From: a virus
Reading direction: 5' to 3' (one strand)
IMG/VR virus record: IMGVR_UViG_3300025012_000003
Length of the DNA: 64,000 nt
The position numbers and the translations under genes were made by a program. Position 1 is the stretch's first letter; each line of letters starts with the position of its first letter. Shown here one piece after another: positions 871 through 39,571 of the stretch. Below the pieces are notes generated by a model. The model saw only the letters and a program-made list of their open reading frames with translations. It ran no database searches and had not been told where the DNA came from.

Positions 871-1227
871 CTAACTTACCAGCTCTTTCATGTATAAAAA
901 TCTATTTATTTCTTCTTGACTTGTTAATTCATAAACTTCTCTTTCTTCATCAAAATGAAGTATTAAATGAGTTAGTACTCTCGACCATATTCTTTCTTTT
1001 TCTTTGAATACTCCGTCAACATATAAATGAAGATGTCTTTTGTGTATCAGCCATTCAACAGTATGACACTGAATATTTTTTCTTCTTATTATATAGAAAG
1101 TTTTATTATCGAGATAATTATTGTATATGTTATCTAACCATTTACTATAAAAGCTATGGAAGAAACACACATCTCTAAACCATTGATGTTTTATATAAAA
1201 TATATCATTAGGTTTTATTTCTTTCAA
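871..1227 (-). CDS. MxEL-tail family protein
   Basis: Tail ELTSQEEINRFLYMKELVS*; likely TTG start at 1227 overlapping the upstream TGA (track start 1275). Confidence 0.75.
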   Translation of the reverse strand: MKEIKPNDIFYIKHQWFRDVCFFHSFYSKWLDNIYNNYLDNKTFYIIRRKNIQCHTVEWLIHKRHLHLYVDGVFKEKERIWSRVLTHLILHFDEEREVYELTSQEEINRFLYMKELVS

Positions 1228-1460
1228 GCTGTTAGCTCCCTTAACATTTTTACAGAGTCTATAAAGCTCAGACATTCTTCTTCTGTTATTTCATTAACAT
1301 ACATATCTGGAATATAATTAGATATGGTCTTTTCAATATTATTTATAAAACACCATTCTTCATATTTAAAGTTGTAAAAATAGAGAAATTTATCATCTCC
1401 ATATAATTTATAGAAGACTTCAGAATTTGCTTTACTTTTAAAATATCTTATATGACTCAA
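1224..1460 (-). CDS. MxEL-tail family protein
   Basis: Tail EITEEECLSFIDSVKMLRELTA*. Confidence 0.8.
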   Translation of the reverse strand: MSHIRYFKSKANSEVFYKLYGDDKFLYFYNFKYEEWCFINNIEKTISNYIPDMYVNEITEEECLSFIDSVKMLRELTA

Positions 1461-1672
1461 CTGATTAATTCCTGTACTGTTTCAAAAGTTTCTATTCGTA
1501 TTAGGCATTCTTCTTGGGTTATTCTCTCTAGGTACCCGTCATATATTTGAAAAGTTTTTGTATCCCCTATTCTCTCCCAACTTTTAAATCTCCAATCATA
1601 CATGAAGAAATAATCATTCACTAATTGATAAAATACTATATTATGTTTATTTATGAAGTATTCCCTAATCAT
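1457..1672 (-). CDS. MxEL-tail family protein
   Basis: Tail RITQEECLIRIETFETVQELIS*. Confidence 0.8.
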   Translation of the reverse strand: MIREYFINKHNIVFYQLVNDYFFMYDWRFKSWERIGDTKTFQIYDGYLERITQEECLIRIETFETVQELIS

Positions 1673-1986
1673 CCTACTAGCTCATTCATTGTTAATAAAC
1701 TGTCTATCTCTTCTTCTGTTATTTCATACATGTCATCGTTGTCTATTAAGCTATTTATAAAACATTTATAGAGGTCTTTGCTGACTGTGTTTTTTCTACC
1801 TTCTTTGTCGTATATCTCAAGACCACATCTCTTATTTCCTACACAATATCCAATACCAACCCACTCATCTTTTTTAGGATTAAAGATTATAGCCACTTTA
1901 ATATCTTTAGCAGGTTCATAATAAAACTTACTATTAAACTCATCTCTTTTGGGAATATGATTAAGTTTTATCATTGCCTTCTCCAA
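1669..1986 (-). CDS. MxEL-tail family protein
   Basis: Tail EITEEEIDSLLTMNELVG*. Confidence 0.8.
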   Translation of the reverse strand: MEKAMIKLNHIPKRDEFNSKFYYEPAKDIKVAIIFNPKKDEWVGIGYCVGNKRCGLEIYDKEGRKNTVSKDLYKCFINSLIDNDDMYEITEEEIDSLLTMNELVG

Positions 1987-2323
1987 ACAAATATCTTATT
2001 GGGATTTTAACAGCGTAGGCTATATCTTCCTGTATTTTATCTATCATACTGAGTTCGTAATAATTTCCCTCTTTAGGTTTAGCTACTAACTCTATCATTA
2101 CCAAAACCGACTCTACTTCTTCTGGAGTTAATTCAAAAACAGTTGATGGATGATGTTCTAAGAAATTTTCAAACTCATAATCCATCCATGCTGACCTATG
2201 CCATTCCCCCTCTCTCAATATATACACAGTGCTAGAAGTACGAAAATTAGCTTCTCGCCTTTTGTAGAAAACAGGATTGTTGTGGTCGTTATCTATATTT
2301 TTATAATATCTACATTTATCCAT
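1961..2323 (-). CDS. MxEL family protein, motif internal with C-terminal extension
   Basis: ELTPEEVESVLVMIELVA followed by ~40 aa. Confidence 0.75.
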   Translation of the reverse strand: MDKCRYYKNIDNDHNNPVFYKRREANFRTSSTVYILREGEWHRSAWMDYEFENFLEHHPSTVFELTPEEVESVLVMIELVAKPKEGNYYELSMIDKIQEDIAYAVKIPIRYLFGEGNDKT

Positions 2324-2702
2324 TAAATTTAGTTCTTATGTTATCTATCTTATTCATTAATCTATTAATAATACTTTTAGTTTTTATAGGGTTTACTTCT
2401 AGGGGTTTCATAGGAATTATAGTTATCCTATTTAACTCTGCCATCATTTCTGATATAGTAAATCCAACTTCATCTTGGTCTACTAGCTCTCTCATAATCA
2501 TAATGGAGTTAGCTTCTTCTTCAGTTATTTCTATAACTTTAGTTGAATCTTGAGATAGATATGTTTCAAATTCCGCTAAACTCCAAATAGAATCTTTCCA
2601 AATATTATCCTTTTGACAAACTACGACTCCTCGTTTATCTACTTTATACAAAGTAGGACAAGATTCAAATTCTATATCTTTGTAATATCTACATTTATTC
2701 AT
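2316..2702 (-). CDS. MxEL family protein, motif internal with C-terminal extension
   Basis: EITEEEANSIMIMRELVD followed by ~53 aa; N-terminus paralogous to 1961..2323 (MxKCRYYK). Confidence 0.75.
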   Translation of the reverse strand: MNKCRYYKDIEFESCPTLYKVDKRGVVVCQKDNIWKDSIWSLAEFETYLSQDSTKVIEITEEEANSIMIMRELVDQDEVGFTISEMMAELNRITIIPMKPLEVNPIKTKSIINRLMNKIDNIRTKFNG

Positions 2703-2832
2703 TGTTAAGCATCTAGTTCTTTTCTTACTTTTTCTACCAAGGGTTTCACTAAATGATACATTCCCATTTTCTTAGCAATTGCTTCTAACTCGTCTACTAA
2801 GACTCTAATAACTCTTTCTAATTTTTCTACGT

Positions 2833-3093
2833 TCATCCTATTAACTCCATCATACTTTGTTGTACCATACATTCTTCTTCCGTTATAAGTTCTGAAGTAT
2901 AACTAGAATGATAATGTTTGTTATACCCAGTTTCTGCTATCAACTCTGATAAATTGTACCATTCAAAACTTATAGCCCACTGCTTACCAGTCCATATATG
3001 AAATATACTTTTATGGATAGTAGGGGTATATTGTATTAACTTAACTTTATTTATTTTATAGTCTAACATGGTAACTTTAAAATATTGACTCAT
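2833..3093 (-). CDS. MxEL-tail family protein
   Basis: Tail LITEEECMVQQSMMELIG*. Confidence 0.8.
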   Translation of the reverse strand: MSQYFKVTMLDYKINKVKLIQYTPTIHKSIFHIWTGKQWAISFEWYNLSELIAETGYNKHYHSSYTSELITEEECMVQQSMMELIG

Positions 3094-3094
3094 A

Positions 3095-3976: not shown

Positions 3977-4267
3977 TTAATTTACAAGTTCTTCCATACT
4001 ACGGAGAGTAATCATTTCATCATCTGTTAATTCAAATACTTTAAAGTCATTCCAGTACCAATAAAAAGTACTCATAGTTTTACTTTTTTCATAATCATGA
4101 GGTTTATCTAAAGTATCGTTATTATTACAATAGTATCTGAATTCTATACCCGTTATATAAATATCTTTATTAAATCCTCGTTTATGTTGTAATAGATAAA
4201 GTTTATTATCAAGAAAAGAATATTTATTATTCTTTTCTTTACTATCGTCAGGAAATATTCTTATCAT
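3977..4267 (-). CDS. MxEL-tail family protein
   Basis: Tail ELTDDEMITLRSMEELVN*. Confidence 0.8.
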   Translation of the reverse strand: MIRIFPDDSKEKNNKYSFLDNKLYLLQHKRGFNKDIYITGIEFRYYCNNNDTLDKPHDYEKSKTMSTFYWYWNDFKVFELTDDEMITLRSMEELVN

Positions 4268-4494
4268 GATACCAATTCTCCCATAGCTAAATAAGCTAGA
4301 TATTCTTCTTCGGAAGCTTCTCTGTACTGCCTAGAATAATATTTTAATAATTCCTCTAAAGTATAACTATGACTTTTATGTAAGTTACCTATCCCATCAA
4401 TGTAATAAAGTCTTCCTTCTTTCTCAACGTAGAATTCAAAATATCTAGCACCCACTTTATGTGTGAAGTCTTCTCTTATCATAGCATATCTCAT
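4264..4494 (-). CDS. MxEL-tail family protein
   Basis: Tail EASEEEYLAYLAMGELVS*. Confidence 0.8.
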   Translation of the reverse strand: MRYAMIREDFTHKVGARYFEFYVEKEGRLYYIDGIGNLHKSHSYTLEELLKYYSRQYREASEEEYLAYLAMGELVS

Positions 4495-4823
4495 GATATT
4501 AATTCTTTCATCATTAGTAAAGAACGTAATTCTTCTTCTGGATTATCCGTTTCTGGTTCATAAAGGACTCCTTCATATTTTTGACATTCGTGTGGATGAT
4601 TACTGTCATGAAGATAGCACTCCCAATTGTCTTCATTTATAAATTTGAAAGTTCCTGTCTGATGCCAAATACCATTATAGTCTCTCTTAGACTCTATTTG
4701 ATAAGAAACTAATTTGAGTCTTTTTATTAAGATGGCTTTTTCAAACTCTTCATACAAAAGATAATATGTTTTATTATAATCAAAGCTCCAAGCCTTTCTT
4801 AATAAGTCATCTATCTTTTTCAT
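4491..4823 (-). CDS. MxEL-tail family protein
   Basis: Tail PEEELRSLLMMKELIS*. Confidence 0.8.
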   Translation of the reverse strand: MKKIDDLLRKAWSFDYNKTYYLLYEEFEKAILIKRLKLVSYQIESKRDYNGIWHQTGTFKFINEDNWECYLHDSNHPHECQKYEGVLYEPETDNPEEELRSLLMMKELIS

Positions 4824-5053
4824 TTTGTAAGTTCTTTCATATATCTTCCTAAGTCTACTTTAGCATTTATCTCTTCAGAAGTCAATCCTCTATCAATAAG
4901 TTCTTTTTCTATAATCTCATAGTAACATTCTAAATCATAGTACTCTCTATTCATATAAGAACTCATACCAGATAACTCATTATCTATCCAAACTAAATCA
5001 GATAATAAACTATCACTTGTCTGTTCTTCTATGTCTTGTAACATATTAGGCAC
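4820..5053 (-). CDS. MxEL-tail family protein
   Basis: Tail LTSEEINAKVDLGRYMKELTK*. Confidence 0.8.
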   Translation of the reverse strand: MPNMLQDIEEQTSDSLLSDLVWIDNELSGMSSYMNREYYDLECYYEIIEKELIDRGLTSEEINAKVDLGRYMKELTK

Positions 5054-5591
5054 CTATAAGTTCTTCCATAGATTCAAGACTTCTTAAAGCATCTTCAAAC
5101 TTACAATAGATTCTGGGTAGGGTCTTTACAAGATTGAAAACTTCTTTACCTGCTAAATATGGATTTCTAAAAGCATAGTTCCAATAGTTAAAACTTGGAT
5201 TAGGAAATGGAAGACCTACATAATATTCTATATTATTTTTATCGTCAAATCTCATTAAATAATTATTGCCTTTTATGTTAGCTAAAATATACTCTTCTCC
5301 GAGACCTAATTTTCTAGCAATATCATGTTCACATTCTACCCTATAGTATATATTCCAAATGTTATCAATGCCAGATAACCATTCATCTAATTCTTTAGAA
5401 GTCTTGTTAGGTTTATAAATATTATCCATAGTACTGTCCCTATCGATAGAAGTATCAGAGACATTACCCTCTTTATCATATAAATAATGAGATGCAATAG
5501 CAGAGAACTCAAGACCCTCTTCCTTTTTAATTAGGTCATAGTACTCTTTGTCTACTGTATATGTTTTATATAATATATGAGAACTATACAT
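5046..5591 (-). CDS. MxEL-tail family protein (181 aa)
   Basis: Tail FEDALRSLESMEELIGA*. Confidence 0.8.
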   Translation of the reverse strand: MYSSHILYKTYTVDKEYYDLIKKEEGLEFSAIASHYLYDKEGNVSDTSIDRDSTMDNIYKPNKTSKELDEWLSGIDNIWNIYYRVECEHDIARKLGLGEEYILANIKGNNYLMRFDDKNNIEYYVGLPFPNPSFNYWNYAFRNPYLAGKEVFNLVKTLPRIYCKFEDALRSLESMEELIGA

Positions 5592-5691: not shown

Positions 5692-5940
5692 TTAGCGTAC
5701 TAACTCTGTCATGGTTATTATTTTAGTACAGTCTCCTTCTGTTATTTCTTGTACCTGATTTACTTTTACCAATCTTTTTATTTTATCTGATATCCTATCA
5801 TAAGGAACCGACTCTGCAAGAACTGTCCAATTATTTCTTTTATAATCATACATATAGGTATAGTCATCTTCATCTACTTTATATAAGTAGTATCCAAATT
5901 CTAAATGGAAACTATTTCTTGGTTCTTTATAATATCTCAT
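5692..5940 (-). CDS. MxEL-tail family protein, probably leaderless mRNA
   Basis: Tail EITEGDCTKIITMTELVR*; ATG 6 nt after the -10 box. Confidence 0.8.
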   Translation of the reverse strand: MRYYKEPRNSFHLEFGYYLYKVDEDDYTYMYDYKRNNWTVLAESVPYDRISDKIKRLVKVNQVQEITEGDCTKIITMTELVR

Positions 5941-5946
5941 AATTTT

Positions 5947-5975
5947 AGTATAACAAAAATAGAGAAGGCAGTCAA
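5947..5975 (-). promoter_or_regulatory. sigma70 promoter embedded in an intrinsic terminator
   Basis: TTGACT-N17-TATACT; -35 sits in the hairpin AGAGAAGGTA/TGCCTTCTCT followed by a U tract. Confidence 0.75.
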
Positions 5976-6066
5976 TACCTTCTCTTTAATAATTAATATA
6001 ATGTTACAAACTTTGGAGGAAGCACAATAAGCTAATTTTAGTAAAACACAATAAGCTAATAAAAAA

Positions 6067-6140
6067 TGGAGCGGGTAGGGAGAATCGAACTCCCTTCATC
6101 AGCTTGGAAGGCTGAGGCACAACCTATATACCATACCCGC
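6067..6140 (-). tRNA. tRNA-Gly(TCC)
   Basis: Cloverleaf, loop CTTCCAA, TTCGATT T-loop, CCA encoded. Confidence 0.95.
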
Positions 6141-6147
6141 TTAATAA

Positions 6148-6230
6148 TACAGGTGAGAGGATTTGAACCTCCACGCTTTTTAAGGCACGAGTGTCTAAAA
6201 CTCGCATGTCTACCATTCCAACACACCTGC
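6148..6230 (-). tRNA. tRNA-Leu(TAG)
   Basis: Loop TTTAGAC, long variable arm, no encoded CCA. Confidence 0.9.
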
Positions 6231-6242
6231 ATAGTATATAAA

Positions 6243-6316
6243 TGGCTGAGGAGATAGGAATCGAACCCATATTCACTGAGTCAAAGTCAGGTGTCCTGCC
6301 GTTAGACGACTCCTCA
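6243..6316 (-). tRNA. tRNA-Gln(TTG)
   Basis: Loop CTTTGAC, CCA encoded. Confidence 0.95.
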
Positions 6317-6327
6317 ATAATTAAAAA

Positions 6328-6402
6328 TGGCTCCCTCGGCAGGACTCGAACCTACAGTCATTCGATTAACAGTCGAACGCTCTACCATTGAGCTACGAGG
6401 GA
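6328..6402 (-). tRNA. tRNA-Asn(GTT)
   Basis: TCCCTCGTAGCTCAATGGTAGAGC..., loop CTGTTAA, CCA. Confidence 0.95.
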
Positions 6403-6408
6403 ATAAAA

Positions 6409-6480
6409 AGCCCTTTGTCAGATTTGAACTGACAACCTTCATCTTACAAGGATGTTGCTCTACCATTGAGCTAAAAGGGC
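6409..6480 (-). tRNA. tRNA-Thr(TGT)
   Basis: Loop CTTGTAA, no encoded CCA. Confidence 0.95.
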
Positions 6481-6483
6481 AAG

Positions 6484-6558
6484 TGGGTGGAAGGACGGGA
6501 CTCGAACCCGCTTTGCTTCGTTCACAGCGAAGGATATTACCCATATATGACCGACCAC
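6484..6558 (-). tRNA. tRNA-His(GTG), acceptor stem with two mismatches
   Basis: Loop CTGTGAA, G-1:C73, CCA. Confidence 0.85.
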
Positions 6559-6559
6559 A

Positions 6560-6633
6560 TGGCGGAACTATGGGGATTTGAACCCCAGACTTCTCGCAGA
6601 CAACGAGTAGTTTTACCCCTAAACTATAGTTCC
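6560..6633 (-). tRNA. tRNA-Asp(GTC)
   Basis: Loop TTGTCTG, CCA. Confidence 0.9.
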
Positions 6634-6640
6634 AAATATA

Positions 6641-6713
6641 TAGATACTGAGAGACTCGAACTCCCGACTTCCTCCGTGTAAGAGAGGCACTCTACCGACT
6701 GAGTTAAGTATCC
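6641..6713 (-). tRNA. tRNA-Val(TAC)
   Basis: Loop CTTACAC. Confidence 0.95.
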
Positions 6714-6714
6714 A

Positions 6715-6790
6715 TGGTCTAGGTGGAGGGACTTGAACCCCCGACTCCCTACGTCCAAGGTAGGATTTCTACCAACTGAATTACACCTAG
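6715..6790 (-). tRNA. tRNA-Pro(TGG)
   Basis: Loop CTTGGAC, CCA. Confidence 0.95.
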
Positions 6791-6801
6791 ATTATAATTA
6801 A

Positions 6802-6875
6802 TGGTGTTTCCTAGAAGAGTCGAACTTCTGTCTAACGCTTATGAGGCGACCGCTCTGCCGTTGAGCTAAGGAAAC
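6802..6875 (-). tRNA. tRNA(CAT), elongator Met or Ile2
   Basis: Loop CTCATAA, G1:C72 paired, CCA; isotype not resolvable by eye. Confidence 0.85.
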
Positions 6876-6876
6876 A

Positions 6877-6954
6877 TGGTAGCAGGAGTTGGATTTGAAC
6901 CAACGACCCCCAGCTTATGAGACTGGTGAGCTAACCAGACTGCTCTATCCTGCG
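6877..6954 (-). tRNA. tRNA-fMet-like (CAT)
   Basis: CGCAGGATAGAGCAGTCTGGTTAGCTC start, C1.U72 mismatch, loop CTCATAA, CCA. Confidence 0.85.
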
Positions 6955-6960
6955 ATAATA

Positions 6961-7034
6961 AGTACCTGATTGGATTTGAACCAACGACTACAGAGGTTGC
7001 AACTCTGCCCCTTAGACCACTTGGGTACAGGTAC
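6961..7034 (-). tRNA. tRNA-Cys(GCA)
   Basis: Loop TTGCAAC, U73. Confidence 0.9.
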
Positions 7035-7035
7035 A

Positions 7036-7110
7036 TGGTGGGAGTAGTAGGTACCGAGCCTACCTCTGGTGCTTTTCAGGCACCCGCTAATCCATCTCAG
7101 CTATTCTCCC
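7036..7110 (-). tRNA. tRNA-Phe(GAA), atypical T-loop
   Basis: Loop CTGAAAA; T-loop CTCGGTA; CCA. Confidence 0.85.
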
Positions 7111-7111
7111 A

Positions 7112-7197
7112 TGGTGCGTTGGGAAGGACTCGAACCTCCAAGTGATTATTAGTCGGGTGGGTTACAGCCACCTGCCATACCGTTAGGCGACCAACGC
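7112..7197 (-). tRNA. tRNA-Tyr(GTA)
   Basis: Loop CTGTAAC, long variable arm, CCA. Confidence 0.9.
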
Positions 7198-7202
7198 ATA
7201 TT

Positions 7203-7272
7203 TGGAGACAGTGGGAATTGAACCCGCTACAACGTCTTTGCAAAAGAAGTCCGCTACCTCAGCGTTATCCCC
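7203..7272 (-). tRNA. tRNA-Ala(TGC), short D-arm
   Basis: G3:U70 in GGGGATA/TGTCTCC stem, loop TTTGCAA, A73. Confidence 0.8.
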
Positions 7273-7274
7273 AT

Positions 7275-7545
7275 GACGGGAGGAGTTACCCTCCCCGACT
7301 TCTAGGCTACGAGAGCCATTTTACGTCCGAAATCTAAAGACACTGTGTTGTTTCCGTTTGTTGTTTTTGCTATTTTTAAAGAGAATGCCCTCTTACTTGC
7401 GAGTTTATCCCTACCTACCACGTCTAATCCACGCACCCCCATGGTGGAGGTGAAGGGAGTCGAACCCTTGTCCGCAACAGACATCAATAAACCTTCTACA
7501 AGTTTAGTCCAATTTGAAGAGTAGGACTTCTCACTAAATTTTCAA
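7275..7545 (-). ncRNA. ssrA: Circularly permuted two-piece tmRNA (acceptor piece ~7545-7442, coding piece 7440-~7275)
   Basis: ...GGACAAGGGTTCGACTCCCTTCACCTCCACCA precedes GGGGGTGCGTGGATTAGAC; G3:U70; helix-2 pairings ATAAAC/GTTTAT and GCAAGT/ACTTGT; tag frame AKTTNGNNTVSLDFGRKMALVA* (7370-7302); outer ends approximate. Confidence 0.9.
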
Positions 7546-8224: not shown

Positions 8225-9265
8225 TTAATCGGTAAATCCTTTTTCCTTTAATTTTTTAATATAAGAAGTGTCCAAGTATTGAATATCTATATTATCTCTT
8301 GTGGCTCCTAACCTTCTAACATTTTGATTTAAAAAATTAAGTAAAAATTCAGTATCATCTAAGTCTCTCGTTGTTTCTGATAAACCTGCGACTTCCCATA
8401 ATTTTGTATAAGAGGAGATAATAATTTGATAATTCCATTTTCTTGGAGTCAACGCTTTCATAGCGACTTCATGAAATAAATCACCTCTGAATAGATAAAC
8501 ATTTCCTTTATCATCCACGAGTCCTCGAACTTCATCAAATTGTTTGAACATTTTATTTAATTCATTTGGGGAAGGATTAACAAAAATATCGGCTTCTCCG
8601 TTACCTCCCCTAGCTGTTGTTACATAGTCTTCATGAGTATCATTAATATTTAATATGACTTTAGGAGTAATAACTACAGCTTCCCAGTCAACTCCAGAAC
8701 GCTTATATAAATCTTTTAGATTGGAGATTGAAACACGTTTCTCTATATACGTTAAAGAAGGATGGTACTCTTCATTATACTTTACCCAACCATCAAGAGG
8801 TACTACTACACCATCTTTTAATTTAAAGAATTTTTGGAAATCCCATTCATATTTCCAATCTGCTATATCTTTAATCAGATATTTTAATCTTTCATTACTT
8901 CTTTTTATGGAAGCATCTCTATTTAAACTATTACTACTATGGTCAAAAAATACTACTTTAGTATCACTTTCTACCAGACCTGCTGTTAATCCTTCAGTAT
9001 TTAAATCTTCTATCTTATTAATCATATCATCGTGAAGAGCTAATCCCCCAACCCACATATATAAGTCATCATTACCATCTATAAAATATCTAAGTCTAAA
9101 TTTTTTATCATATTTGTGTCTACTATTATCATTATAACCTATTTTTACTAATGCCCTAAAATCACTGGAGGTAGGATTTTTAAACACTTCCACTTCTTTA
9201 GAGTAGTTACTTTTAACTACTCCATAAAATTCTTCTGTTATCTTTTTAATTTTCTTTAAACTCAT
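8225..9265 (-). CDS. Putative head-internal protein, two repeats of an FxNP domain
   Basis: N-term MSLKKIKKITEE; repeats VEVFKNPT and ADIFVNPS; function is inference. Confidence 0.6.
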   Translation of the reverse strand: MSLKKIKKITEEFYGVVKSNYSKEVEVFKNPTSSDFRALVKIGYNDNSRHKYDKKFRLRYFIDGNDDLYMWVGGLALHDDMINKIEDLNTEGLTAGLVESDTKVVFFDHSSNSLNRDASIKRSNERLKYLIKDIADWKYEWDFQKFFKLKDGVVVPLDGWVKYNEEYHPSLTYIEKRVSISNLKDLYKRSGVDWEAVVITPKVILNINDTHEDYVTTARGGNGEADIFVNPSPNELNKMFKQFDEVRGLVDDKGNVYLFRGDLFHEVAMKALTPRKWNYQIIISSYTKLWEVAGLSETTRDLDDTEFLLNFLNQNVRRLGATRDNIDIQYLDTSYIKKLKEKGFTD

Positions 9266-9718
9266 TTATCCAATCACCCATTCAACTTGTTCTGGAGAAT
9301 ATCCAAACCTAGACACATCAGGGTCTGATAAGAAATCGTTAGTAAGTTCTTTTACATCTTCCTCATCTTCAAATTCTTCTTCGTCCCTGTATCCAAGTAT
9401 GTTCATGTAAAGTTCTATCTTATCAGGAAACATTTTCCCTTGAAAGGTATCAGCTTCCATTCTTTTATAGTCTTCATCATCCATAACACTTCCGTGTAAG
9501 ATTCTACCATCCCAAACATACAGAGCATCACCTATGGTAAATCTCACGTATCCAAATTCTTTAAAAAGTTTATATAGTTCTTGTTTAGAGGGATTTCTAA
9601 AGATATCTACATTAGTGTCTCCTTTAAGACCACTAACCATAGCAGTCATAGAGTTTCCTTTCACTAAAATAGATTTATAATACTCTTCTGTTATCTTTTT
9701 AATCTTCTTAAGACTCAT
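9266..9718 (-). CDS. Paralog of 8225..9265, one FxNP domain
   Basis: Likely start MSLKKIKKITEE at 9718; VDIFRNPSKQEL. Confidence 0.6.
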   Translation of the reverse strand: MSLKKIKKITEEYYKSILVKGNSMTAMVSGLKGDTNVDIFRNPSKQELYKLFKEFGYVRFTIGDALYVWDGRILHGSVMDDEDYKRMEADTFQGKMFPDKIELYMNILGYRDEEEFEDEEDVKELTNDFLSDPDVSRFGYSPEQVEWVIG

Positions 9719-9760
9719 TAAATATATTTCCAATAGTAATCTATTTAAAATATAAAACTT

Positions 9761-18821: not shown

Positions 18822-18852
18822 TAAAATCTCCTTGTCTTAATCTTATATATTT

Positions 18853-18889: not shown

Positions 18890-18917
18890 ATATAAGTTTG
18901 TTACAATTATTTACAGA

Positions 18918-27236: not shown

Positions 27237-27426
27237 ACTTCTTTACCTTTTCTATGAAATCTTCTCTCCCGTCCACATCATCTAGCATGAGAGAAGAAAG
27301 TTGATTCCTCTGTTCGGGTGTCATCTTATTGTAGTTGCTCAAACATTGCATTTCAATATCTTTAATCTGTTTTTCAATCTCTAAGATATCGTCTATTAAT
27401 TTGTTAGCTTCATTTTCAAAATTCAT
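27220..27426 (-). CDS. Coiled-coil hypothetical protein
   Basis: Likely start MNFENE at the ATGA overlap. Confidence 0.6.
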   Translation of the reverse strand: MNFENEANKLIDDILEIEKQIKDIEMQCLSNYNKMTPEQRNQLSSLMLDDVDGREDFIEKVKKYDTNI

Positions 27427-27647
27427 GATGTCAACTCCTTCATAGTTAAATAAGTTAAAGTTTCTTCTTCTGTTATAGTTGTTATGATACCTCCGAAAGT
27501 TCCAAAACATCTTATTAAATCTTCTTCATCTACATAGTGAGTACTGAGCCACTTCCCTATTTCAGGAACATAAGCTTCTACTGTTTTAATACCTTCTGGG
27601 TCATATCTAAAATACCTATTTCTACTGGAACTAAAATATTTTATCAT
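27423..27647 (-). CDS. MxEL-tail family protein
   Basis: Tail TITEEETLTYLTMKELTS*. Confidence 0.8.
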   Translation of the reverse strand: MIKYFSSSRNRYFRYDPEGIKTVEAYVPEIGKWLSTHYVDEEDLIRCFGTFGGIITTITEEETLTYLTMKELTS

Positions 27648-27919
27648 GATACTAATTCTACCATAAACATTAACTTTTGGAGATGCTCTAAATTCTTGGC
27701 TCCCGTTATATCATAAATTATTATATTATTTTCTTCATGATATCTTCTTAAGGGAGGTTGACTATGGCTGGAATGTTCTCCACCTTTTAAATAGTTATCG
27801 TAGGCTTTCTTAATACTTTTATCCTCGGGGTATTCAAGATATTTATTCCGCTTATAAGATACTATTTTATACCTGCTAGATTTTGCAAACCTATGTTCAT
27901 ATAAGTATAATTTTTTCAT
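27644..27919 (-). CDS. MxEL-tail family protein
   Basis: Tail LQKLMFMVELVS*. Confidence 0.8.
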   Translation of the reverse strand: MKKLYLYEHRFAKSSRYKIVSYKRNKYLEYPEDKSIKKAYDNYLKGGEHSSHSQPPLRRYHEENNIIIYDITGAKNLEHLQKLMFMVELVS

Positions 27920-28227
27920 GATACTAATTCTACCATAAATATTTTAGTTTGTCTAGCTACAGTTTCTTTTTCTATTACATCAGCTATAGCCCTAGTGATA
28001 ACTTTGGGAAGACTATCTCTGTGGCTCTGTTCCATTCTCGGACTATAGTATAATCTATCCCAACTACGGACTTCATTGAACAAGTACTCCATAGTATAAG
28101 TACCTTTTCTTCTATCAACAAGTCTTAAGTTACGTACTGCGAGTTCATTACCTTTATTAAATAGATAGTATCTACTTGTCTCAGCTATAAGATTATATTC
28201 GTTTATAACAGTATATTCGTTTGACAT
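27916..28227 (-). CDS. MxEL-tail family protein
   Basis: Tail RQTKIFMVELVS*; last 24 nt identical to those of 27644..27919. Confidence 0.8.
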   Translation of the reverse strand: MSNEYTVINEYNLIAETSRYYLFNKGNELAVRNLRLVDRRKGTYTMEYLFNEVRSWDRLYYSPRMEQSHRDSLPKVITRAIADVIEKETVARQTKIFMVELVS

Positions 28228-28229
28228 AG

Positions 28230-28562
28230 TTAATACCTTTTCCAATAATCATAAAGTAATATAAACATTCCACATAGTTTACAAAAGAATCTGTAGCTTA
28301 TAGTTATCTCATATATTCTTTTGTTGAATAAAATAAACACCTGTACTATTTGAAAGCAACTAGCATTACTAATTTTAAAATCATATCCTCGGGCATACTT
28401 TATTTTATAATCTTTTAAAGTCATTCTCTGTATGAATTCAGCAGACTCAGATTGCCCTTCTGGAAATAATTTCCCTGTATGGAAATTAATGAATCCTAAT
28501 TTAATAAAGAAAATATCTTTATATGTATAGTATTCCAATATGTTTTTAATTAATACTTTCAT
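28230..28562 (-). CDS. Hypothetical protein
   Basis: 110 aa ORF. Confidence 0.5.
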   Translation of the reverse strand: MKVLIKNILEYYTYKDIFFIKLGFINFHTGKLFPEGQSESAEFIQRMTLKDYKIKYARGYDFKISNASCFQIVQVFILFNKRIYEITISYRFFCKLCGMFILLYDYWKRY

Positions 28563-29205: not shown

Positions 29206-29237
29206 AATAAACTCCTATTGCTTAACCTCATAATATA

Positions 29238-29290
29238 AATATATCATGAATGCAGTAAGAGTTCAAGTGTGTTAAACAATCTTTGTTACA
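29238..29290 (-). promoter_or_regulatory. Promoter with TGTAAC half-box
   Basis: TTGAAC-N17-TATATT; leader AGGTTAAGCAATAGGAG. Confidence 0.65.
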
Positions 29291-29533
29291 TTAGTTTACA
29301 AGTTCGTGCATAGTAAGTATTCTAGTAACTTCATCCTCGTCTGTTATTATTTTAAGACCTACAGGAAATTCATCTATTATATTTTCTAATGTCTTTCCCA
29401 TAGTATGTATGGGACATAAGTATTCTTTACTATCCCCCGTCAAATATCTATAATGGATATTATCTTCTCCATAAAAATACACACGGGAAAGAGCGGGGTT
29501 ATAAGGAATATCTACTATAAGTCTCTTTAGCAT
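29291..29533 (-). CDS. MxEL-tail family protein
   Basis: Tail ITDEDEVTRILTMHELVN*. Confidence 0.8.
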   Translation of the reverse strand: MLKRLIVDIPYNPALSRVYFYGEDNIHYRYLTGDSKEYLCPIHTMGKTLENIIDEFPVGLKIITDEDEVTRILTMHELVN

Positions 29534-29791
29534 TTAACTTACTAACTCCTTAAGAACAAGAGCACTATTAAATTCTTCTTCTGATAATTCTTGTACTATG
29601 TTTAACTTTTTATACAAATCCTGTATGTCATCACAGAAAGCTCCAATGTGCCTATCATAGTATTGAAATAAAACATATCCTCTAGGAACAGCTAACTGAT
29701 GAGGACAGAACTTAACATACTCAAAAAGATTAGAGGGTGTTACAACCTTAAAGTATCTGGGTTTAGTGTATTCAAGATACAAATTCCTCAT
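29534..29791 (-). CDS. MxEL-tail family protein
   Basis: Tail ELSEEEFNSALVLKELVS*. Confidence 0.8.
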   Translation of the reverse strand: MRNLYLEYTKPRYFKVVTPSNLFEYVKFCPHQLAVPRGYVLFQYYDRHIGAFCDDIQDLYKKLNIVQELSEEEFNSALVLKELVS

Positions 29792-30390: not shown

Positions 30391-30660
30391 TTAGTTTATT
30401 AACTCCTTCATGCACTTGTATATTTCTGCTTCTTCCTGCGTAGCCTTCTGGAATTCCTTTCCATTCTTTTGGATACCGTAATCTAACAGGTCTCTTAGTC
30501 CCGCTTCTGATACATCACTCCACATAGTAACAGAGAATCCATTGAAGTAAAATTGTTTCTTAGTAGCTACATCTCTTATAGTCCATGCTCCTCTTCGACA
30601 TTCGTGGAATGTCTCGTCATAATAAACTTCTACTATACTATCGTTAATCTTATAGTACAT
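30391..30660 (-). CDS. MxEL-tail family protein
   Basis: Tail ATQEEAEIYKCMKELIN*. Confidence 0.8.
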   Translation of the reverse strand: MYYKINDSIVEVYYDETFHECRRGAWTIRDVATKKQFYFNGFSVTMWSDVSEAGLRDLLDYGIQKNGKEFQKATQEEAEIYKCMKELIN

Positions 30661-31193
30661 TAGTTTAATAGCTCCTGTAGCATTAGGATTGAATCTATCT
30701 TATCTTCTGAGTTCAACATTCCTCTTACTTCCTCAGTAATATTTTCGTCCTTTAGAAACTTCTCCAGTGTATCATAGTAATAGAATTGTAATTCTTTAAA
30801 AAGACTGCTTCTTATCCTAGAGATTATGAACGGATGATTCTTTGTATCAGTTTCCGAATAGCCGTAGTAATCAGAATCATATTCATCTACTATATCAAAG
30901 CTTCCTCTACTAAATTTTATTTTCCATTTATTCTTACCTCTCCAGTAAGGGTCATGATACTTAGATACTACAAACTCTTCATTAGTATCATGTAGTTCTT
31001 TAATCTTATTGTAGCATATTATTACTAAAGCATCAAGTAGTTTGTAACTAAATCTTATCTTATCGGCTTCTTCTTTTATTAACTCAGGATTATCAATTGC
31101 ATCTTTAAGCATACCTCGTAGAGAACTGTGGCTCCTACAGTTCTCTTCTATTAAAAGTATGTCGGCTATTACTTCTGAGTTAGTGTAATCCAT
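30660..31193 (-). CDS. MxEL-tail family protein (177 aa)
   Basis: Tail SEDKIDSILMLQELLN*. Confidence 0.8.
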   Translation of the reverse strand: MDYTNSEVIADILLIEENCRSHSSLRGMLKDAIDNPELIKEEADKIRFSYKLLDALVIICYNKIKELHDTNEEFVVSKYHDPYWRGKNKWKIKFSRGSFDIVDEYDSDYYGYSETDTKNHPFIISRIRSSLFKELQFYYYDTLEKFLKDENITEEVRGMLNSEDKIDSILMLQELLN

Positions 31194-31597
31194 TAGTTTA
31201 CAAGTTCTTCCATAACTTTAGGTGCGTTCATTATACTATCAACTTCTTCTCTTCTACGAGAACAATCAAAACATCCTACGTAAGTTATTCTACAGTAGAC
31301 TTTAACTATAGCTGTAACAACTCCGTCTATGTTTTCGTATGTTAGTACATTGCTTGTACTAGCTTGGTCGTATTCTATATTAACACAAGCATAACCAGCA
31401 CTGAAATCTTTAACGTGGTTTCTTAACTCTTCATTCTGTAAACTGGAATGGTAGTAAACATTCTCCACTACTAAATCTCTAAAGGTAATTTCATTATCTG
31501 TCTTAGCAATACATTGTACTGAAGTTCCTCTTGCGGGAATGCGTTCTCTCTTTTTTCTAGTCGTCATACTTTTACCAGAACCTTTTATAGCAATCAT
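31193..31597 (-). CDS. MxEL-tail family protein
   Basis: Tail IMNAPKVMEELVN*. Confidence 0.8.
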   Translation of the reverse strand: MIAIKGSGKSMTTRKKRERIPARGTSVQCIAKTDNEITFRDLVVENVYYHSSLQNEELRNHVKDFSAGYACVNIEYDQASTSNVLTYENIDGVVTAIVKVYCRITYVGCFDCSRRREEVDSIMNAPKVMEELVN

Positions 31598-31602
31598 AGA
31601 TG

Positions 31603-31667
31603 TCTCCTTGTCTTAACCTTATATATTTAGTATAACAAAAGAGGCACCATAAGTCTAGTGTCTCTTT
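31603..31667 (-). promoter_or_regulatory. Promoter embedded in a terminator, plus conserved 23-nt leader
   Basis: TAGACT-N17-TATACT; hairpin AAGAGACAC/GTGCCTCTT; leader TATATAAGGTTAAGACAAGGAGA. Confidence 0.7.
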
Positions 31668-31694
31668 AGTATTTATTAAGTTATTGTTACAATG

Positions 31695-35824: not shown

Positions 35825-36070
35825 TTAACCGAATATTCTCAAAGTTCTGTAATCATTATAGTTATACTTAATATCTTGATAAATAGGTTTACCCTCAGAA
35901 GTTTTTGATTTATGGGTAATAGTTTTAATAGTATCTTCTTTAAGATATATAGCTTCTACTGAAGGACTGACAATTATATTAACTTCTTTATTCTTAAGTT
36001 TAGGAACTATGCCTTCTTGTTTTTCTATTAGGCTTACTACTTGTCTTAATTCTGTTAAACTCAGATACAT
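35825..36070 (-). CDS. Hypothetical protein
   Basis: 81 aa ORF. Confidence 0.6.
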   Translation of the reverse strand: MYLSLTELRQVVSLIEKQEGIVPKLKNKEVNIIVSPSVEAIYLKEDTIKTITHKSKTSEGKPIYQDIKYNYNDYRTLRIFG

Positions 36071-38010: not shown

Positions 38011-38520
38011 TTAGATTATATTAAATTTCTTAAGTATGTTATATAAATTATGAGGATTTACTACACTTGAGTTAGTATCAAATAATACTTTACAATGGAA
38101 TAAAGCATCTGTTACTAACTCAGAACAGAAGAACTTCTTCTCCGATTCTTTTGTTTTAATCTTTGAATTAATTCCATGAAGTCCAGACATCAAAGCTTGG
38201 TAGAAATCGTAAGGTCTACCATTCACATCATTGACAAAAGTTCTCAGGGCATTAGCATCAAACCTTTCTCTAGCACTTAGAGTTAGAGGGAAACATTCTT
38301 TACCTTGAGTTCTGTTTAATGCTTCGGATAGAGGAACTATCCTCACTCCCGCAGTTTGAGCTTCCAACATATTTTCAGAGTCAACTGCTATTCCCGCATG
38401 GGAATACTTAGACCAAGTAAATATACGAATAACTTGTCCCATTAAGTCAGCAGGTTCAAAGAAGATTACATCTCCCGCTTGTAATTTTGGATATTGTTTT
38501 TGTTTCTTACTGAATAACAT
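38011..38520 (-). CDS. Permuted papain-like (YiiX/YaeF, C92) cysteine hydrolase
   Basis: AGDVIFF...YSHAGI...YD...FFCSELV. Confidence 0.85.
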   Translation of the reverse strand: MLFSKKQKQYPKLQAGDVIFFEPADLMGQVIRIFTWSKYSHAGIAVDSENMLEAQTAGVRIVPLSEALNRTQGKECFPLTLSARERFDANALRTFVNDVNGRPYDFYQALMSGLHGINSKIKTKESEKKFFCSELVTDALFHCKVLFDTNSSVVNPHNLYNILKKFNII

Positions 38521-38549
38521 TTCTATTCTCCTATTGTTTATATGATTTA

Positions 38550-38771
38550 TTATGTAGCATTGACAATAGTTTCATAAGACAACTGAACTTTAGTTGGGTC
38601 TAATGCTTGATAGTTTCCTTTGTCCTCGAAAGCAAATTCAACATTGTTTACTGTATATGTATTCTTTACTCCATGTATATCTGTTATAGATATTAAATCT
38701 CCCGCTCTTGGTAATAGTACTATGGTTAGATTATCAGCTACTACAGTTCCACCTACCACTAATTTCATCAT
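38550..38771 (-). CDS. Hypothetical protein
   Basis: 73 aa ORF. Confidence 0.55.
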   Translation of the reverse strand: MMKLVVGGTVVADNLTIVLLPRAGDLISITDIHGVKNTYTVNNVEFAFEDKGNYQALDPTKVQLSYETIVNAT

Positions 38772-38795
38772 ATATCTTTCTCCTTTATTATTGTA

Positions 38796-39029
38796 TTATA
38801 TATCCCAGCTCACTTCTAATACTCTATCCGTCTCTGTTGTTTTTTGTATGGTTACTTTGTATCCTTGCTCTTGATAATGGGATACTATTTCATCAGATAA
38901 TGAAATAGGAATCTCATCTACTTTGATACTAAGTTTACCATAATGTACTCTACCTTCTATCTTATTATCAATGATAGCTATATTAGATTCTAATGTTTCT
39001 TTACGAACTCCTTCAGCAGATTTTGTCAT
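38796..39029 (-). CDS. Hypothetical protein
   Basis: 77 aa ORF. Confidence 0.6.
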   Translation of the reverse strand: MTKSAEGVRKETLESNIAIIDNKIEGRVHYGKLSIKVDEIPISLSDEIVSHYQEQGYKVTIQKTTETDRVLEVSWDI

Positions 39030-39236
39030 CTAATCCTCCTTATAGTTTGATAGCATTACGTCATAGTCGCTGAAAGCGTATGAGAGTTTCACTATCAAAT
39101 CCCACGCTTCGTCAGAAGGAGCTACATCTTTTGACTCAAAGAAGTCTAGTATCTTTAATAGAGCCACTGCTTCTGTATTTGTTTCCAATGTTATGGTTAT
39201 GGGCTGAAATGATAATTCGTCTTGAGTTATTTTCAT
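39030..39236 (-). CDS. Hypothetical protein
   Basis: FQPITITLET motif common in small phage proteins. Confidence 0.6.
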   Translation of the reverse strand: MKITQDELSFQPITITLETNTEAVALLKILDFFESKDVAPSDEAWDLIVKLSYAFSDYDVMLSNYKED

Positions 39237-39571
39237 CTTACCAGTTCCTCCAATACTTCAACAGAAACTTGAGGTAGCTTATAATTGGGGTCTTCCAACT
39301 CCCTAACCATTCTTCCAAAATTAATTATCTCTTTGATTGAATTTCTTATAGAAGATTTTATACTTGTATAAGCGATAGTAAACTCTGGATATAAATCTTG
39401 ATACCCAGTGCAATCGCTGTAAGTAATTCCCCACAAAAAATTAGATATGTCTATGGGTAACTTAGTATTAAGTAAAGTATTTTTAATGACTCTCTGATAC
39501 AGTCTTGGAAAATCATTAGACTTCTTTGAGTCTATTATCTTTTGGAAATCTCTAAGTGTGTAAATTTTCAT
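39233..39571 (-). CDS. Protein with weak MxEL-like tail
   Basis: Tail VEVLEELVR*. Confidence 0.6.
   Translation of the reverse strand: MKIYTLRDFQKIIDSKKSNDFPRLYQRVIKNTLLNTKLPIDISNFLWGITYSDCTGYQDLYPEFTIAYTSIKSSIRNSIKEIINFGRMVRELEDPNYKLPQVSVEVLEELVR

Follow-up and report, generated by a model that had tools for sequence, protein, structure and literature searches.

vWA-MoxR systems are accompanied by zincin peptidases that pair with small, fast-diverging proteins whose C-terminal peptide stays conserved, and the MIDAS site binds an extended peptide (PMC7159879). The passage of that paper on zincin metallopeptidases with 'FxSxx-COOH'-type small proteins cites Haft & Basu 2011. In CbbO, the MIDAS site engages an acidic residue of the substrate (PMC4660213).

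The DNA considered here (the window) is a stretch of 64,000 nucleotides (G000:C1:63994-127993) from the complete 190,151-bp genome of an uncultured phage (G000). All genes of the window lie on the minus strand, and many encode small proteins that end in one shared tail (Table 1). Family and literature searches found no described family and no published account of this tail, in agreement with an earlier note on this DNA, whose author knew of no described phage system of such scale.

Occurrence of the C-terminal tail

The strict pattern [MLI]-x-E-L-[VIT]-[SGNTD]-stop is present in 34 ORFs of the window, and the looser pattern [MLIV]-x-E-L-[VITLA]-x(1-3)-stop in 53 minus-strand ORFs, the number counted by hand in the earlier note. 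The blocks described there (0.9-5.9, 13.1-17.0, 20.3-28.2 and 29.3-31.6 kb) were recovered together with a copy at 39.2 kb, and there are zero pattern matches at 40-64 kb, where the tag had been said to be absent. In the whole genome, the looser pattern occurs in 95 minus-strand ORFs and one plus-strand ORF (about 0.3 expected). The 5-mer [MLI]xEL[VIT] was seen genome-wide 90 times within three residues of the C-terminus, against 0.29 expected from composition, and 35 times internally, against 15.4 expected. The shared C-terminal tag is real and more extensive than first reported. About one quarter of the phage genes are tagged, corresponding to about 100 small, otherwise unlike early proteins; 91 of 254 genes below 104 kb carry the tag and 1 of 106 above (Fisher p = 2e-15).

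The spacing from the motif to the C-terminus is two residues in 88% of the copies in G000. About 10% of the tail copies are not at the extreme C-terminus, and in about 10 further proteins the motif is internal and followed by an extension, which is often acidic. The upstream cap given in the earlier note as E-[IL]-T-x-E-E exists (as 'T/S-E-E/D-E'), but it is less regular than stated there; a weakly conserved strand precedes the tail in many proteins. The tail is portable and is predicted to form an amphipathic helix of 12-20 residues at the C-terminus, with an acidic N-cap followed by hydrophobic-x-x-hydrophobic-[L/K]-x-[M/L]-x-E-L-x-x-end.

The tail is selected at the amino-acid level. The Leu codons TTA, CTT, CTA, TTG, CTG and CTC account for 39, 22, 16, 14, 7 and 2% at the motif and for 53, 17, 12, 12, 4 and 3% genome-wide, respectively, and both GAA and GAG are used for Glu. 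The motif is carried by 62 of the 113 start/stop-coupled genes in the small-ORF half and by 0 of 19 in the replication/structural half. Because the six Leu codons occur in genome-like proportions and coupled genes elsewhere lack the motif, the tail is a peptide signal and not the by-product of an in-frame ribosome-binding site. It is also kept when 40-480 nt separate the gene from the next one, and at least 14 tails that stop at TAA and are followed by a gap of at least 40 nt retain the motif.

The tail is confined to a non-late gene class, small proteins from host-type promoters. Sigma70-like promoters head tagged operons, whereas the 21 operons that begin with the late-type motif contain no tagged genes.

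Table 1. ORFs of the window with the C-terminal motif (run A, unbroken run of seven at 22046-24217; run B, run of ten at 24450-27236)
Position	Strand	Length (aa)	Feature
871-1275	-	134	tagged, ends in motif
1224-1460	-	78	tagged, YFKV subfamily
1457-1672	-	71	tagged, YFKV subfamily
1669-1986	-	105	tagged
1961-2323	-		motif internal + 40 residues
2316-2702	-		motif internal + 54 residues
2833-3093	-	86	tagged, YFKV subfamily
3977-4267	-	96	tagged; TAA stop, gap to next gene 62 nt
4264-4494	-	76	tagged
4491-4823	-	110	tagged
4820-5053	-	77	tagged
5046-5591	-	181	tagged, three residues beyond E-L, no Pfam domain
5692-5940	-	82	tagged, YFKV subfamily; own sigma70-like promoter within hairpin at 5947-5985
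13149-13427	-	92	motif internal + 19-residue extension; identical layout in L005 orthologue
13424-13777	-		tagged
13774-14001	-		tagged
14002-14298	-		tagged
14799-15056	-	85	tagged
15550-15843	-		tagged
15836-16273	-		tagged
16270-16566	-		tagged
16563-16766	-		tagged
16763-16996	-		tagged
20296-20628	-	110	tagged
20625-20921	-	98	tagged, two-TM protein
20921-21181	-		tagged, Cys/His zinc-ribbon-like
21183-21467	-		tagged
21469-21735	-		tagged
21717-22049	-		tagged
22046-22567	-		tagged, run A
22564-22872	-		tagged, run A
22869-23153	-		tagged, run A
23153-23455	-		tagged, run A
23452-23709	-		tagged, run A
23706-23987	-		tagged, run A
23981-24217	-		tagged, run A
24214-24453	-	79	tagged, YFKV subfamily, AlphaFold2-modelled
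24450-24803	-		tagged, run B
24800-25105	-		tagged, run B
25102-25338	-		tagged, run B
25335-25652	-		tagged, run B
25649-25894	-		tagged, run B
25891-26244	-		tagged, run B
26241-26453	-		tagged, run B
26429-26671	-		tagged, run B
26668-26991	-		tagged, run B
26988-27236	-		tagged, run B
27423-27647	-		tagged
27644-27919	-		tagged
27916-28245	-		tagged
29291-29533	-		tagged
29534-29791	-		tagged
30391-30660	-		tagged
30660-31193	-		tagged
31193-31597	-		tagged
31598-31694			promoter + conserved leader upstream of ORFs 30391-31597
39233-39571	-	112	tagged, borderline copy

Proteins that carry the tail

The bodies had been taken to be all different. BLAST relations among them are indeed nearly nil, but 12-20 share a 'YFKV ... 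W' pattern and form one small alpha+beta fold family. A profile of these YFKV bodies found 35 metagenomic relatives, all of which keep the tail, and weak profile matches are enriched in tagged ORFs. In the AlphaFold2 model of ORF 24214-24453 (pLDDT 92.7, pTM 0.78), four strands are followed by a helix, a strand (residues 58-63) and the tail helix (residues 65-78), which is an integral helix of the fold, one of two packed on the sheet, and not a free appendage; weak fold matches cover residues 1-79. Many tagged bodies are diverged paralogues of one small alpha+beta domain in which, on the modelled fold, the tail is integral. These observations, together with the equal divergence of tail and body between close orthologues (80 and 78.5% conservation, respectively; the tail is no better kept), would suit a single, vastly expanded and hyper-diverged paralogue family, in which the C-terminal strand and helix are the most constrained element, as folding core or self-association helix of the domain, and no common reader exists.

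Other carriers argue against such a family. The protein encoded at G000 57948-58184 contains a complete Fer4_13 ferredoxin domain (residues 7-61; 28.9 bits, cut-off 24.5), and whereas solved 64-residue ferredoxins stop at the position of its residue 65, it continues for 13 more residues, which are the tail. In the two-TM protein (20625-20921), the second hydrophobic segment is followed directly by a basic stretch and then by the tail, which is also found on Cys-rich proteins. The tail is portable and occurs on unrelated bodies of independent origin, as the earlier note had held. An iterative profile search did not extend past the seed set, and the invariance of Met, Glu and Leu in the tail goes far beyond what a buried helix face requires. 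With the fixed spacing to the end and the genome-wide dialects, seen in orthologues too (below), these points make a lone paralogue family a serious but rather unlikely explanation.

Dialects of the tail in related phages

The same tail recurs in related metagenomic phages, in dialects that run through each genome (ELVS, ELNK, EMSR and KLA-). The endings are E-L-[VIT]-[SGN] in G000, L009 and L010, E-M-[SL]-[RK] in L120 and mostly K-L-A-x in L121. In L007, 34 of 34 tagged ORFs end in E-L-[SEN]-[KR] with Met shifted by one position, and the distance from motif to end is constant in all 34. An untagged protein is 58% identical between L007 and G000, but BLAST finds no relation between the tagged bodies of the two. 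The orthologues A5 (30-36% identical) and A6 each end in the dialect of their own genome. The last tail residues change between related phages genome-wide and in concert. The YFKV bodies gave a tree without resolution, and each dialect may therefore have arisen only once, through expansion within its lineage.

A MoxR AAA+ ATPase and zincin peptidase-vWA pair

Two genes in the late half of the genome, outside the window, encode a MoxR AAA+ ATPase and a peptidase-vWA protein. The ATPase gene matches AAA_3 at 29.4 bits and has a Walker A motif. The second gene matches DUF2201_N (131 bits), a zincin peptidase domain with HExxH, and the DUF2201 vWA domain (49 bits) with an intact MIDAS (D-x-S-x-S, GGGT and LTDG). 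Immediately upstream of this pair stand two tail-bearing ORFs, the only ones above 104 kb, an adjacency with a chance of about 1e-3 as estimated by hand and not computed by a tool. The same adjacency was found in four further metagenomic lineages (L117, L118, L120 and L121), in which the peptidase is 57-38% identical. In Bacillus phage G, the MoxR-like ATPase (gp566) and the peptidase-vWA protein (gp576) are ten genes apart, and the homologous repeat proteins gp559-563, a few genes upstream, match A5 by BLAST at 1e-6 to 1e-10; a low-power search of phage G with the tail profile gave no matches. Against a link between tail and machine, contig L119 (machine at 40% identity) has no tails nearby. 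The machine is also common among cultured large phages, none of which is known to have such a tag. Alternatively, its tagged neighbours may be dedicated subunits of the machine, without bearing on the other 90.

Proposed function of the tail

The tail is probably a shared recognition handle. The MoxR/vWA-peptidase pair is tentatively put forward as the best candidate for its reader. Our best reading, which we consider evenly balanced, is a shared docking handle possibly read by this machine. The tail would mark small proteins that the phage clade expresses from host-type (non-late) promoters, and one reader, perhaps the phage's own MoxR-type ATPase with its HExxH zincin peptidase/vWA protein, would engage all of them through the common handle. 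MIDAS sites bind extended peptides through an acidic side chain, so that their ligand in the tail may be the invariant Glu; in L121 this position is mostly Lys, which argues against that role. Docked proteins would be remodelled, clipped or cleared. If so, the phage would possess one switch over its entire early accessory proteome.

A handle of this kind could also have the phage's HslV-like peptidase or a host machine as its reader. It would then serve as a degron, or as an adaptor-docking motif, for an AAA+ protease that limits how long early proteins last or that delivers their targets. Among the phage proteins is an HslV-family peptidase (phrog_1040, 5e-22) whose N-terminal residue is Thr, but no HslU, ClpX or ClpP was found; the tag of its permuted tmRNA ends in M-A-L-V-A, loosely like M-x-E-L-V-S, and the tagged genes are of the non-late class. 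However, known C-terminal degrons have non-polar endings, whereas the tails end in polar residues (S, G or N; K or R in other lineages), and about 10% of them carry extensions. The HslV-like gene, a candidate partner in the earlier note, has no tagged neighbours and lacks the genomic tie that the MoxR pair has, and we consider a proteolytic signal of this type quite improbable.

Far less probable is a C-terminal capsid-targeting or processing signal on proteins that are packed and injected, with [M/L/I]-x-E and the cap I-T-E as cleavage sites of a T4 gp21-type prohead protease. The T4 enzyme cleaves after [LI]-x-E, and this phage encodes a Peptidase_S77 (T4 gp21 family) protease (32.8 bits, cut-off 27) and a separate set of proteins with T4-like N-terminal leaders. 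One N-leader gene does lie in a late-type operon, but no tagged gene lies in any, which makes the packaging role raised in the earlier note unlikely; moreover, about 100 cargo species would be without precedent, and P3 is mostly Met instead of Leu or Ile.

An origin of the motif as a by-product of translational coupling, from an in-frame Shine-Dalgarno sequence (G-GAR) at a fixed distance from an overlapping ATGA start/stop, which the earlier note had named as the finding that would undo its proposal, is already refuted: of the 67 coupled tails, 35 do have a codon ending in G before Glu, which places GGA 8-9 nt upstream of the following ATG, and TGA is the stop in 54 of 95 tagged ORFs, but the G is missing in about half of the coupled tails, the uncoupled TAA-stop tails, the free Leu and Glu codons and the motif-free coupled genes elsewhere oppose it, and Met, Leu and the acidic cap are left unexplained.

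Comparison with known systems

In T4, the capsid-targeting sequence stands at the N-terminus of a few late-expressed internal proteins. Like the tail, it is a short terminal address on unrelated phage proteins that ends in hydrophobic-x-Glu, and the matching protease family is present in this phage. In contrast, the tail is C-terminal, non-late and found on about 100 proteins, and the separate N-terminal leader class of this phage fits the T4 model better.

Legionella Dot/Icm effectors have a C-terminal translocation signal with a Glu-rich 'E-block' and a hydrophobic residue near the end. In this system, and with encapsulin and microcompartment cargo peptides, hundreds of unrelated bodies share a short acidic C-terminal signal for one receptor, as the tail may do. 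These systems belong to another type of organism and machinery and have no sequence relation to the tail; a secretion system or shell receptor is not evident in this phage.

In CbbQ-CbbO, RavA-ViaA and Rea1/midasin-Rsa4, the vWA MIDAS holds the client by an acidic side chain, with force supplied by the AAA+ ring (PMC4660213); the counterpart here would be the invariant Glu at the centre of the tail. Unlike the phage pair, none of them has a peptidase domain. Each is dedicated to one or a few clients, which it engages through folded surfaces, and not to a library of proteins with a portable terminal helix.

The peptide-processing systems of Kaur et al. 2020 (PMC7159879) likewise combine a MoxR AAA+ ATPase, a MIDAS vWA protein and a zincin peptidase beside small proteins, which there as here diverge rapidly and have a C-terminal peptide as their conserved part. 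In the phage, however, a single polypeptide combines the peptidase with the vWA domain (DUF2201_N + DUF2201), cleavage is putative, and the tail motif belongs to none of the four types described. Those systems have one or a few such neighbours, whereas here about 100 carriers are spread over half a phage genome.

Tail motif and its frequency

The C-terminal helix [MLIV]-x-E-L-x-x, termed here the tail or tag, is shared by many small proteins of this phage. A strict pattern detected it in 34 ORFs of the window, and a looser pattern in 53 ORFs of the window and 95 ORFs genome-wide, versus one on the other strand. These counts bear out an earlier note that had credited about 55 small proteins with a common C-terminal helix. 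In the whole genome the 5-mer [MLI]xEL[VIT] lies at most three residues from the C-terminus 90 times, compared with 0.29 expected. Tagged genes make up 92 of 360 in the complete genome (G000), a count that rests on greedy gene calling, and 193 of 544 ORFs when four related loci are included.

The tail profile reads T/S, E, E/D, E, hydrophobic, x, x, hydrophobic, L/K, x, M (76%), x, E, L, V/I/T, S/G/N, which is predicted to form an N-capped amphipathic helix with a mean charge of -2.2. Exactly two residues follow E-L in 88% of the copies, and the last residue is S/G/N/E/D in G000 and K/R in other lineages. The motif is internal in about 10 proteins (about 10% of tails), where it is followed by an extension that is often acidic, so a free carboxylate beside the motif is not obligatory.

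Genome organization

G000 (190,151 bp, 31% G+C) has direct terminal repeats and is rated complete by CheckV; the window corresponds to G000:C1:63994-127993. All genes of the window lie on the minus strand. The family-A DNA polymerase shows about 25% identity to the enzymes of T5-like phages. A DNA-level search of cultured phages gave no match, the relatives detected in IMG/VR were only those with 96-100% identity, and an IMG/VR pattern scan for the tail recovered near relatives alone. The main features are listed in the table. The absence of tails from 40-64 kb of the window, as first noted, extends to the entire 86-kb late/replication half, except for two tail-bearing ORFs directly upstream of a MoxR / peptidase-vWA gene pair.

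The tag of the permuted tmRNA was read by ARAGORN as 17 residues ending in M-A-L-V-A; a tmRNA was also sought in the related locus L005, for co-variation of its tag with the tail, and none was found. In comparisons of G000 with L085, L047, L072 and L080, adjacent small orthologues are 30%-99% identical, a patchwork in which some genes are frozen and others move very fast. Among their tagged genes, the related contigs L009 and L010 have genes for a GmrSD_N-domain protein, an ART-PolyVal-like protein, a Cpn10 co-chaperonin and an AdoMet decarboxylase.

Features of the phage genome and of related loci (minus strand marked where recorded)
Feature	Coordinates	Strand	Details
Structural genes	G000 190-128 kb		
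Replication genes	G000 128-104 kb = window 40-64 kb		
Small ORFs	~100 kb below replication genes		interrupted by 15 tRNA genes and permuted tmRNA
15-tRNA block	window 6067-7273	-	adjoins permuted tmRNA
Permuted (two-piece) tmRNA	window 7302-7503	-	Rfam tmRNA_permuted 98 bits vs threshold 47
MoxR-type AAA+	G000 181804-182961		AAA_3 29.4 bits vs cut-off 27; Walker A present
Zincin peptidase + vWA fusion	G000 183084-184481		DUF2201_N 131 bits (HExxH), DUF2201 49 bits, Peptidase_M48 24.4 bits, VWA_CoxE 21.5 bits
Tail-bearing ORFs upstream of the pair	G000 184572-184928, 185006-185395		
HslV-family peptidase	window 56063-56872	-	Thr at position 2; highly charged C-terminal extension of ~90 residues
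Modelled YFKV protein	window 24214-24453		
Ferredoxin with tail	G000 57948-58184		Fer4_13 28.9 bits vs curated cut-off 24.5; model positions 4-57 of 58, residues 7-61
Two-TM protein with tail	window 20625-20921		
T4 gp21-family (S77) prohead protease	G000 161498-161899		
Basic N-leader family	window 8225-9265, 9266-9733	-	M-S/F-x-K-K-I-x-K-I-x-E-E; paralogues G000 40815-41231, 156840-157286
Late-motif site	window 9734-9760	-	one of 21 genome-wide
Hairpins with -35 box in loop	window 5947-5985, 18853-18889	-	sigma70-like; TTGACT / TTGAAA; extended -10 just downstream
Further hairpin-promoter copies	G000 95590-95687, 45976-46072, 35919-36061		before tagged operons
Conserved 5' leader	window 31598-31694, 18822-18917, 29206-29290	-	~22 nt; promoter to first ATG of several tagged operons
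Genes with recognized products among the tagged genes	L009 7253-7792, 19967-20252; L010 13904-14209, 15909-16310		

Proteins that carry the tail

The bodies to which the tail is attached were linked by all-against-all BLAST in two pairs only. The earlier view that all bodies differ holds at this level and fails for 12-20 proteins that share the pattern M-x-K-Y-F-K-V ... Y-x-R ... F-Y-D ... W, recognized by eye and by profile (YFKV subfamily). A 14-member YFKV profile searched against 1.84 billion representatives retrieved 35 proteins of 64-97 residues, all metagenomic and all with the tail, and an iterative profile search for a single body family stalled at its 12 seeds. The AlphaFold2 model of one YFKV protein, built with 40 sequences (pLDDT 92.7, pTM 0.78), contains four strands, then a helix and another strand, with the tail as a second helix (residues 65-78); in this subfamily the tail is thus predicted to be part of the fold. 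Among solved and viral structures the model matches nothing more specific than a generic alpha+beta sandwich (VIA-align, best Z 5.7): Foldseek found nothing in the PDB at E <= 0.001, BFVD gave weak uncharacterized matches only, and the ESM Atlas gave unnamed clusters.

Other carriers are of different kinds. One body contains the ligands CxxCxxCxxxCP ... CP and is, by its sequence, a complete single-cluster ferredoxin domain; PDB ferredoxins reach no further than its residue 65, after which come the 13 residues of the tail. A model of this ferredoxin with its tail, built from an alignment of two rows only, was uninformative (pLDDT 40). In the two-TM protein the tail begins directly after the second hydrophobic segment, and several further carriers are Cys-rich. 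A Pfam search of twenty larger carriers detected no domain, and Pfam and PHROGs searches of 14 YFKV members and 28 other carriers gave no family except the one ferredoxin. The integral helix of the one good model favours a tail that is no more than a structural family signature. Its portability to a ferredoxin, a two-TM protein and Cys-rich bodies speaks against this explanation, which is possible but doubtful. Even if the tail is structural only, the clade would still stand out for the extreme divergence of its bodies around one unchanging helix.

A candidate reader of the tail

The MoxR-type AAA+ gene and the gene for the zincin peptidase-vWA fusion were found by searching G000 for MoxR and vWA families. 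The MIDAS residues of the fusion (D-x-S-x-S, GGGT and LTDG) are intact and are kept in four lineages, and its HExxH motif is conserved. Peptidase-vWA proteins encoded on the related contigs L117, L120, L118 and L121 are 57%, 50%, 49% and 38% identical to that of G000, respectively. Tail-bearing ORFs occur immediately before the pair on all four contigs, and often also after it; L121 has eight in a row. These pair-adjacent tails are in the dialect of each contig, that is, its own variant of the last tail residues (E-L-N-K, E-M-S-R or K-L-A-x), and in L121 the Glu is mostly Lys. The upstream tail-bearing proteins A5 (30-36% identical across lineages) and A6 are orthologous, and their tails follow the local dialect. 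No tails were seen on contig L119, which encodes a 40% identical peptidase-vWA protein.

The repeat proteins gp559, gp560, gp562 and gp563 of Bacillus phage G are homologous to A5 (BLAST 1e-6 to 1e-10), with alignments that reach the C-terminus, and three of the four end in recognizably similar tails. They are encoded upstream of the MoxR-like ATPase gene gp566, a few genes away from it, and the peptidase-vWA gene gp576 is about 4 kb beyond gp566. A low-power search of the phage G genome with the tail profile found nothing. Homologues of the DUF2201_N + DUF2201 protein were detected in 475 cultured phage records, among them Bacillus phage G, PA5oct-like, Atu_ph07, GAP32 and N4-like phages, often under the labels 'HNH endonuclease' or 'hypothetical'. 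In the contexts inspected, the peptidase-vWA gene is accompanied by a MoxR AAA+ gene on five of six metagenomic contigs (L120 gave no AAA_3 match) and in Bacillus phage G. The pair is a candidate reader of the tail, with a reproducible genomic tie.

Searches of G000 for other reader candidates (HslU/ClpX-type AAA_2, ClpP, TPR and PDZ) gave no match, a generic AAA search returned only the MoxR ORF and a RecA-like gene, both below threshold, and neither HslU, ClpX nor ClpP was found. The HslV-family peptidase encoded by G000 (phrog_1040, 5e-22) would favour reading of the tail by that enzyme or by a host protease. The ssrA-like C-terminal degrons recognized by ClpX have non-polar last residues and a free carboxylate (-LAA-like). 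The tail differs from them in its polar or charged last residue and in the extensions of about 10% of its copies, and such a reader is unlikely.

Expression class of the tagged genes

Two promoter types were identified in the intergenic regions. A T4-late-like motif (TATATTATAAATAG and variants; TATAT[TA][AT]TA..T[AG]G) heads 21 operons, which include all structural ones and a few scattered among early genes in the small-ORF half. Tagged operons have sigma70-like promoters at their head. In many cases a terminator-like hairpin carries the -35 box in its loop, and a conserved leader (ATATAAGGTTAAGACAAGGAGA and variants) comes after the promoter. These hairpin-loop promoters resemble the promoter-early stem-loops of T4-type phages. 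None of the genes in the 21 late-motif operons is tagged, and because of this and the sigma70-like heads the tag is taken to mark a non-late gene class.

This class argues against capsid packaging; sorting/packaging was one of several candidate roles of the tail in the earlier note. The T4-type capsid-targeting sequence is an N-terminal leader of about 10 residues that ends in [LI]-x-E, is associated with a gp21-family protease and is expressed with the late genes. The tail does carry [M>L>I]-x-E, and an S77 protease gene is present in the same genome. It is C-terminal, however, its genes are absent from the late-motif operons, and one gene of the N-leader family sits behind the late motif; a capsid-targeting tail is very improbable. 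The N-leader family has a common 'F-x-N-P-S ... Y-V-W ... H' domain and is kept in L005, L007 and L009 (58% identical in L007).

Peptide signal and translational coupling

Many junctions of tagged genes are ATGA overlaps, and the codon before the tail Glu ends in G in half of them, which places GGA 8-9 nt ahead of the next start; a ribosome-binding site is thus overlaid on the tail. The tail Leu is nevertheless encoded by all six codons in near-genomic proportions and the Glu by both, the motif persists in at least 14 tails that end in TAA and lie 40-480 nt from the next gene, and none of 19 coupled genes of the other genome half has it, their in-frame sites yielding assorted K-E or G-G endings. 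The tail is a peptide signal, and its origin as a by-product of coupling, which had been named as the finding that would overturn the earlier reading, is hardly conceivable. A recombination junction at the DNA level was also rejected, because synonymous sites in the tail vary freely.

Relatives and tail dialects

The related loci L005/L009, L010 and L007, all of which encode distant YFKV relatives, are phage fragments of 31-33% G+C with the tail on most small ORFs. All 34 tails of L007 end in [M/L]-[L/I/V]-x-E-L-[S/E/N]-[K/R]. Compared with the G000 tail, the Met is shifted by one position, Leu is no longer followed by a hydrophobic residue, and the tail ends in a basic one. The bodies of L007 and G000 show no BLAST relation, whereas one untagged protein reaches 58% identity. 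When G000 is compared with a close relative, orthologous tails are 80% and bodies 78.5% identical, and the identities of neighbouring orthologues span 30-99%. The K dialect is that of L007, L117 and L118. A tree built from the bodies gave no branching order that distinguishes single from multiple origins of the dialects or of the K-dialect members.

Proposed function and comparison with known systems

It is tentatively proposed that the phage encodes an address system, in which a MIDAS-docking helix, carried by one gene product in four (about 100 early accessory proteins), lets a MoxR AAA+ / vWA-zincin-peptidase machine treat the whole early proteome as a single group, to be processed, activated or cleared. 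Tag and reader would co-evolve into lineage dialects, and the Bacillus phage G module with its tail-bearing repeat protein and the related modules of many jumbo phages would represent the ancestral state of a general, undescribed kind of phage protein control. The whole proposal is possible, with the odds against it. The invariant tail Glu, flanked by Met and Leu, would dock on the MIDAS site of the phage vWA, which would expose the docked protein to clipping, activation, remodelling or clearance by the fused peptidase and the ATPase. The ancestral copy may have been the tail of the module's own repeat-protein partner, from which it may have spread to about 100 early genes of the clade; this spread would be eased because a replaced gene that keeps its 3' end leaves the ribosome site and the start of its downstream neighbour intact. 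Docking has two weak points, the Lys that mostly replaces Glu in L121 and the integral tail of the YFKV model. The earlier docking or targeting reading is partly supported: the peptide-level signal and its portability over bodies stand.

The genes of large phages are mostly small orphans that offer no handle for study. In this phage one gene in four has the same peptide, as does the corresponding gene class throughout the clade, and the peptide presumably has a meaning for a common partner. If the pair is the reader, this would give a function to a module that occurs widely among cultured jumbo and N4-like phages, and phages could control a whole temporal class at the protein level. A simple sequence rule would then identify early accessory (host-takeover/counter-defence) proteins in metagenomic phages, and the portable tag and its reader could serve as a tool.

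Literature searches and curated families gave nothing that describes the tail. The nearest described kind of system is vWA-MoxR-linked peptide processing. In vWA proteins an acidic side chain of the client supplies the sixth ligand of the MIDAS ion, and the MoxR ring provides force (PMC4660213). The zincin peptidase of bacterial vWA-MoxR systems acts on small, fast-diverging proteins, which it cleaves and in which a C-terminal peptide is the part that is conserved (PMC7159879). A MoxR AAA+, a vWA with an intact MIDAS and a zincin (HExxH) peptidase are common to these systems and G000, and adjacent small diverging proteins with a conserved C-terminus also occur in G000/L116, L117, L118, L120 and L121, and in Bacillus phage G as the tail-like gp559-563. 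None of the described motif types (PMC7159879) equals the G000 tail, [ML]-x-E-L-x-x, whose acidic cap spans about three residues. The phage case thus differs from the described systems in its motif, its domain fusion, its phage setting and, above all, its scale.
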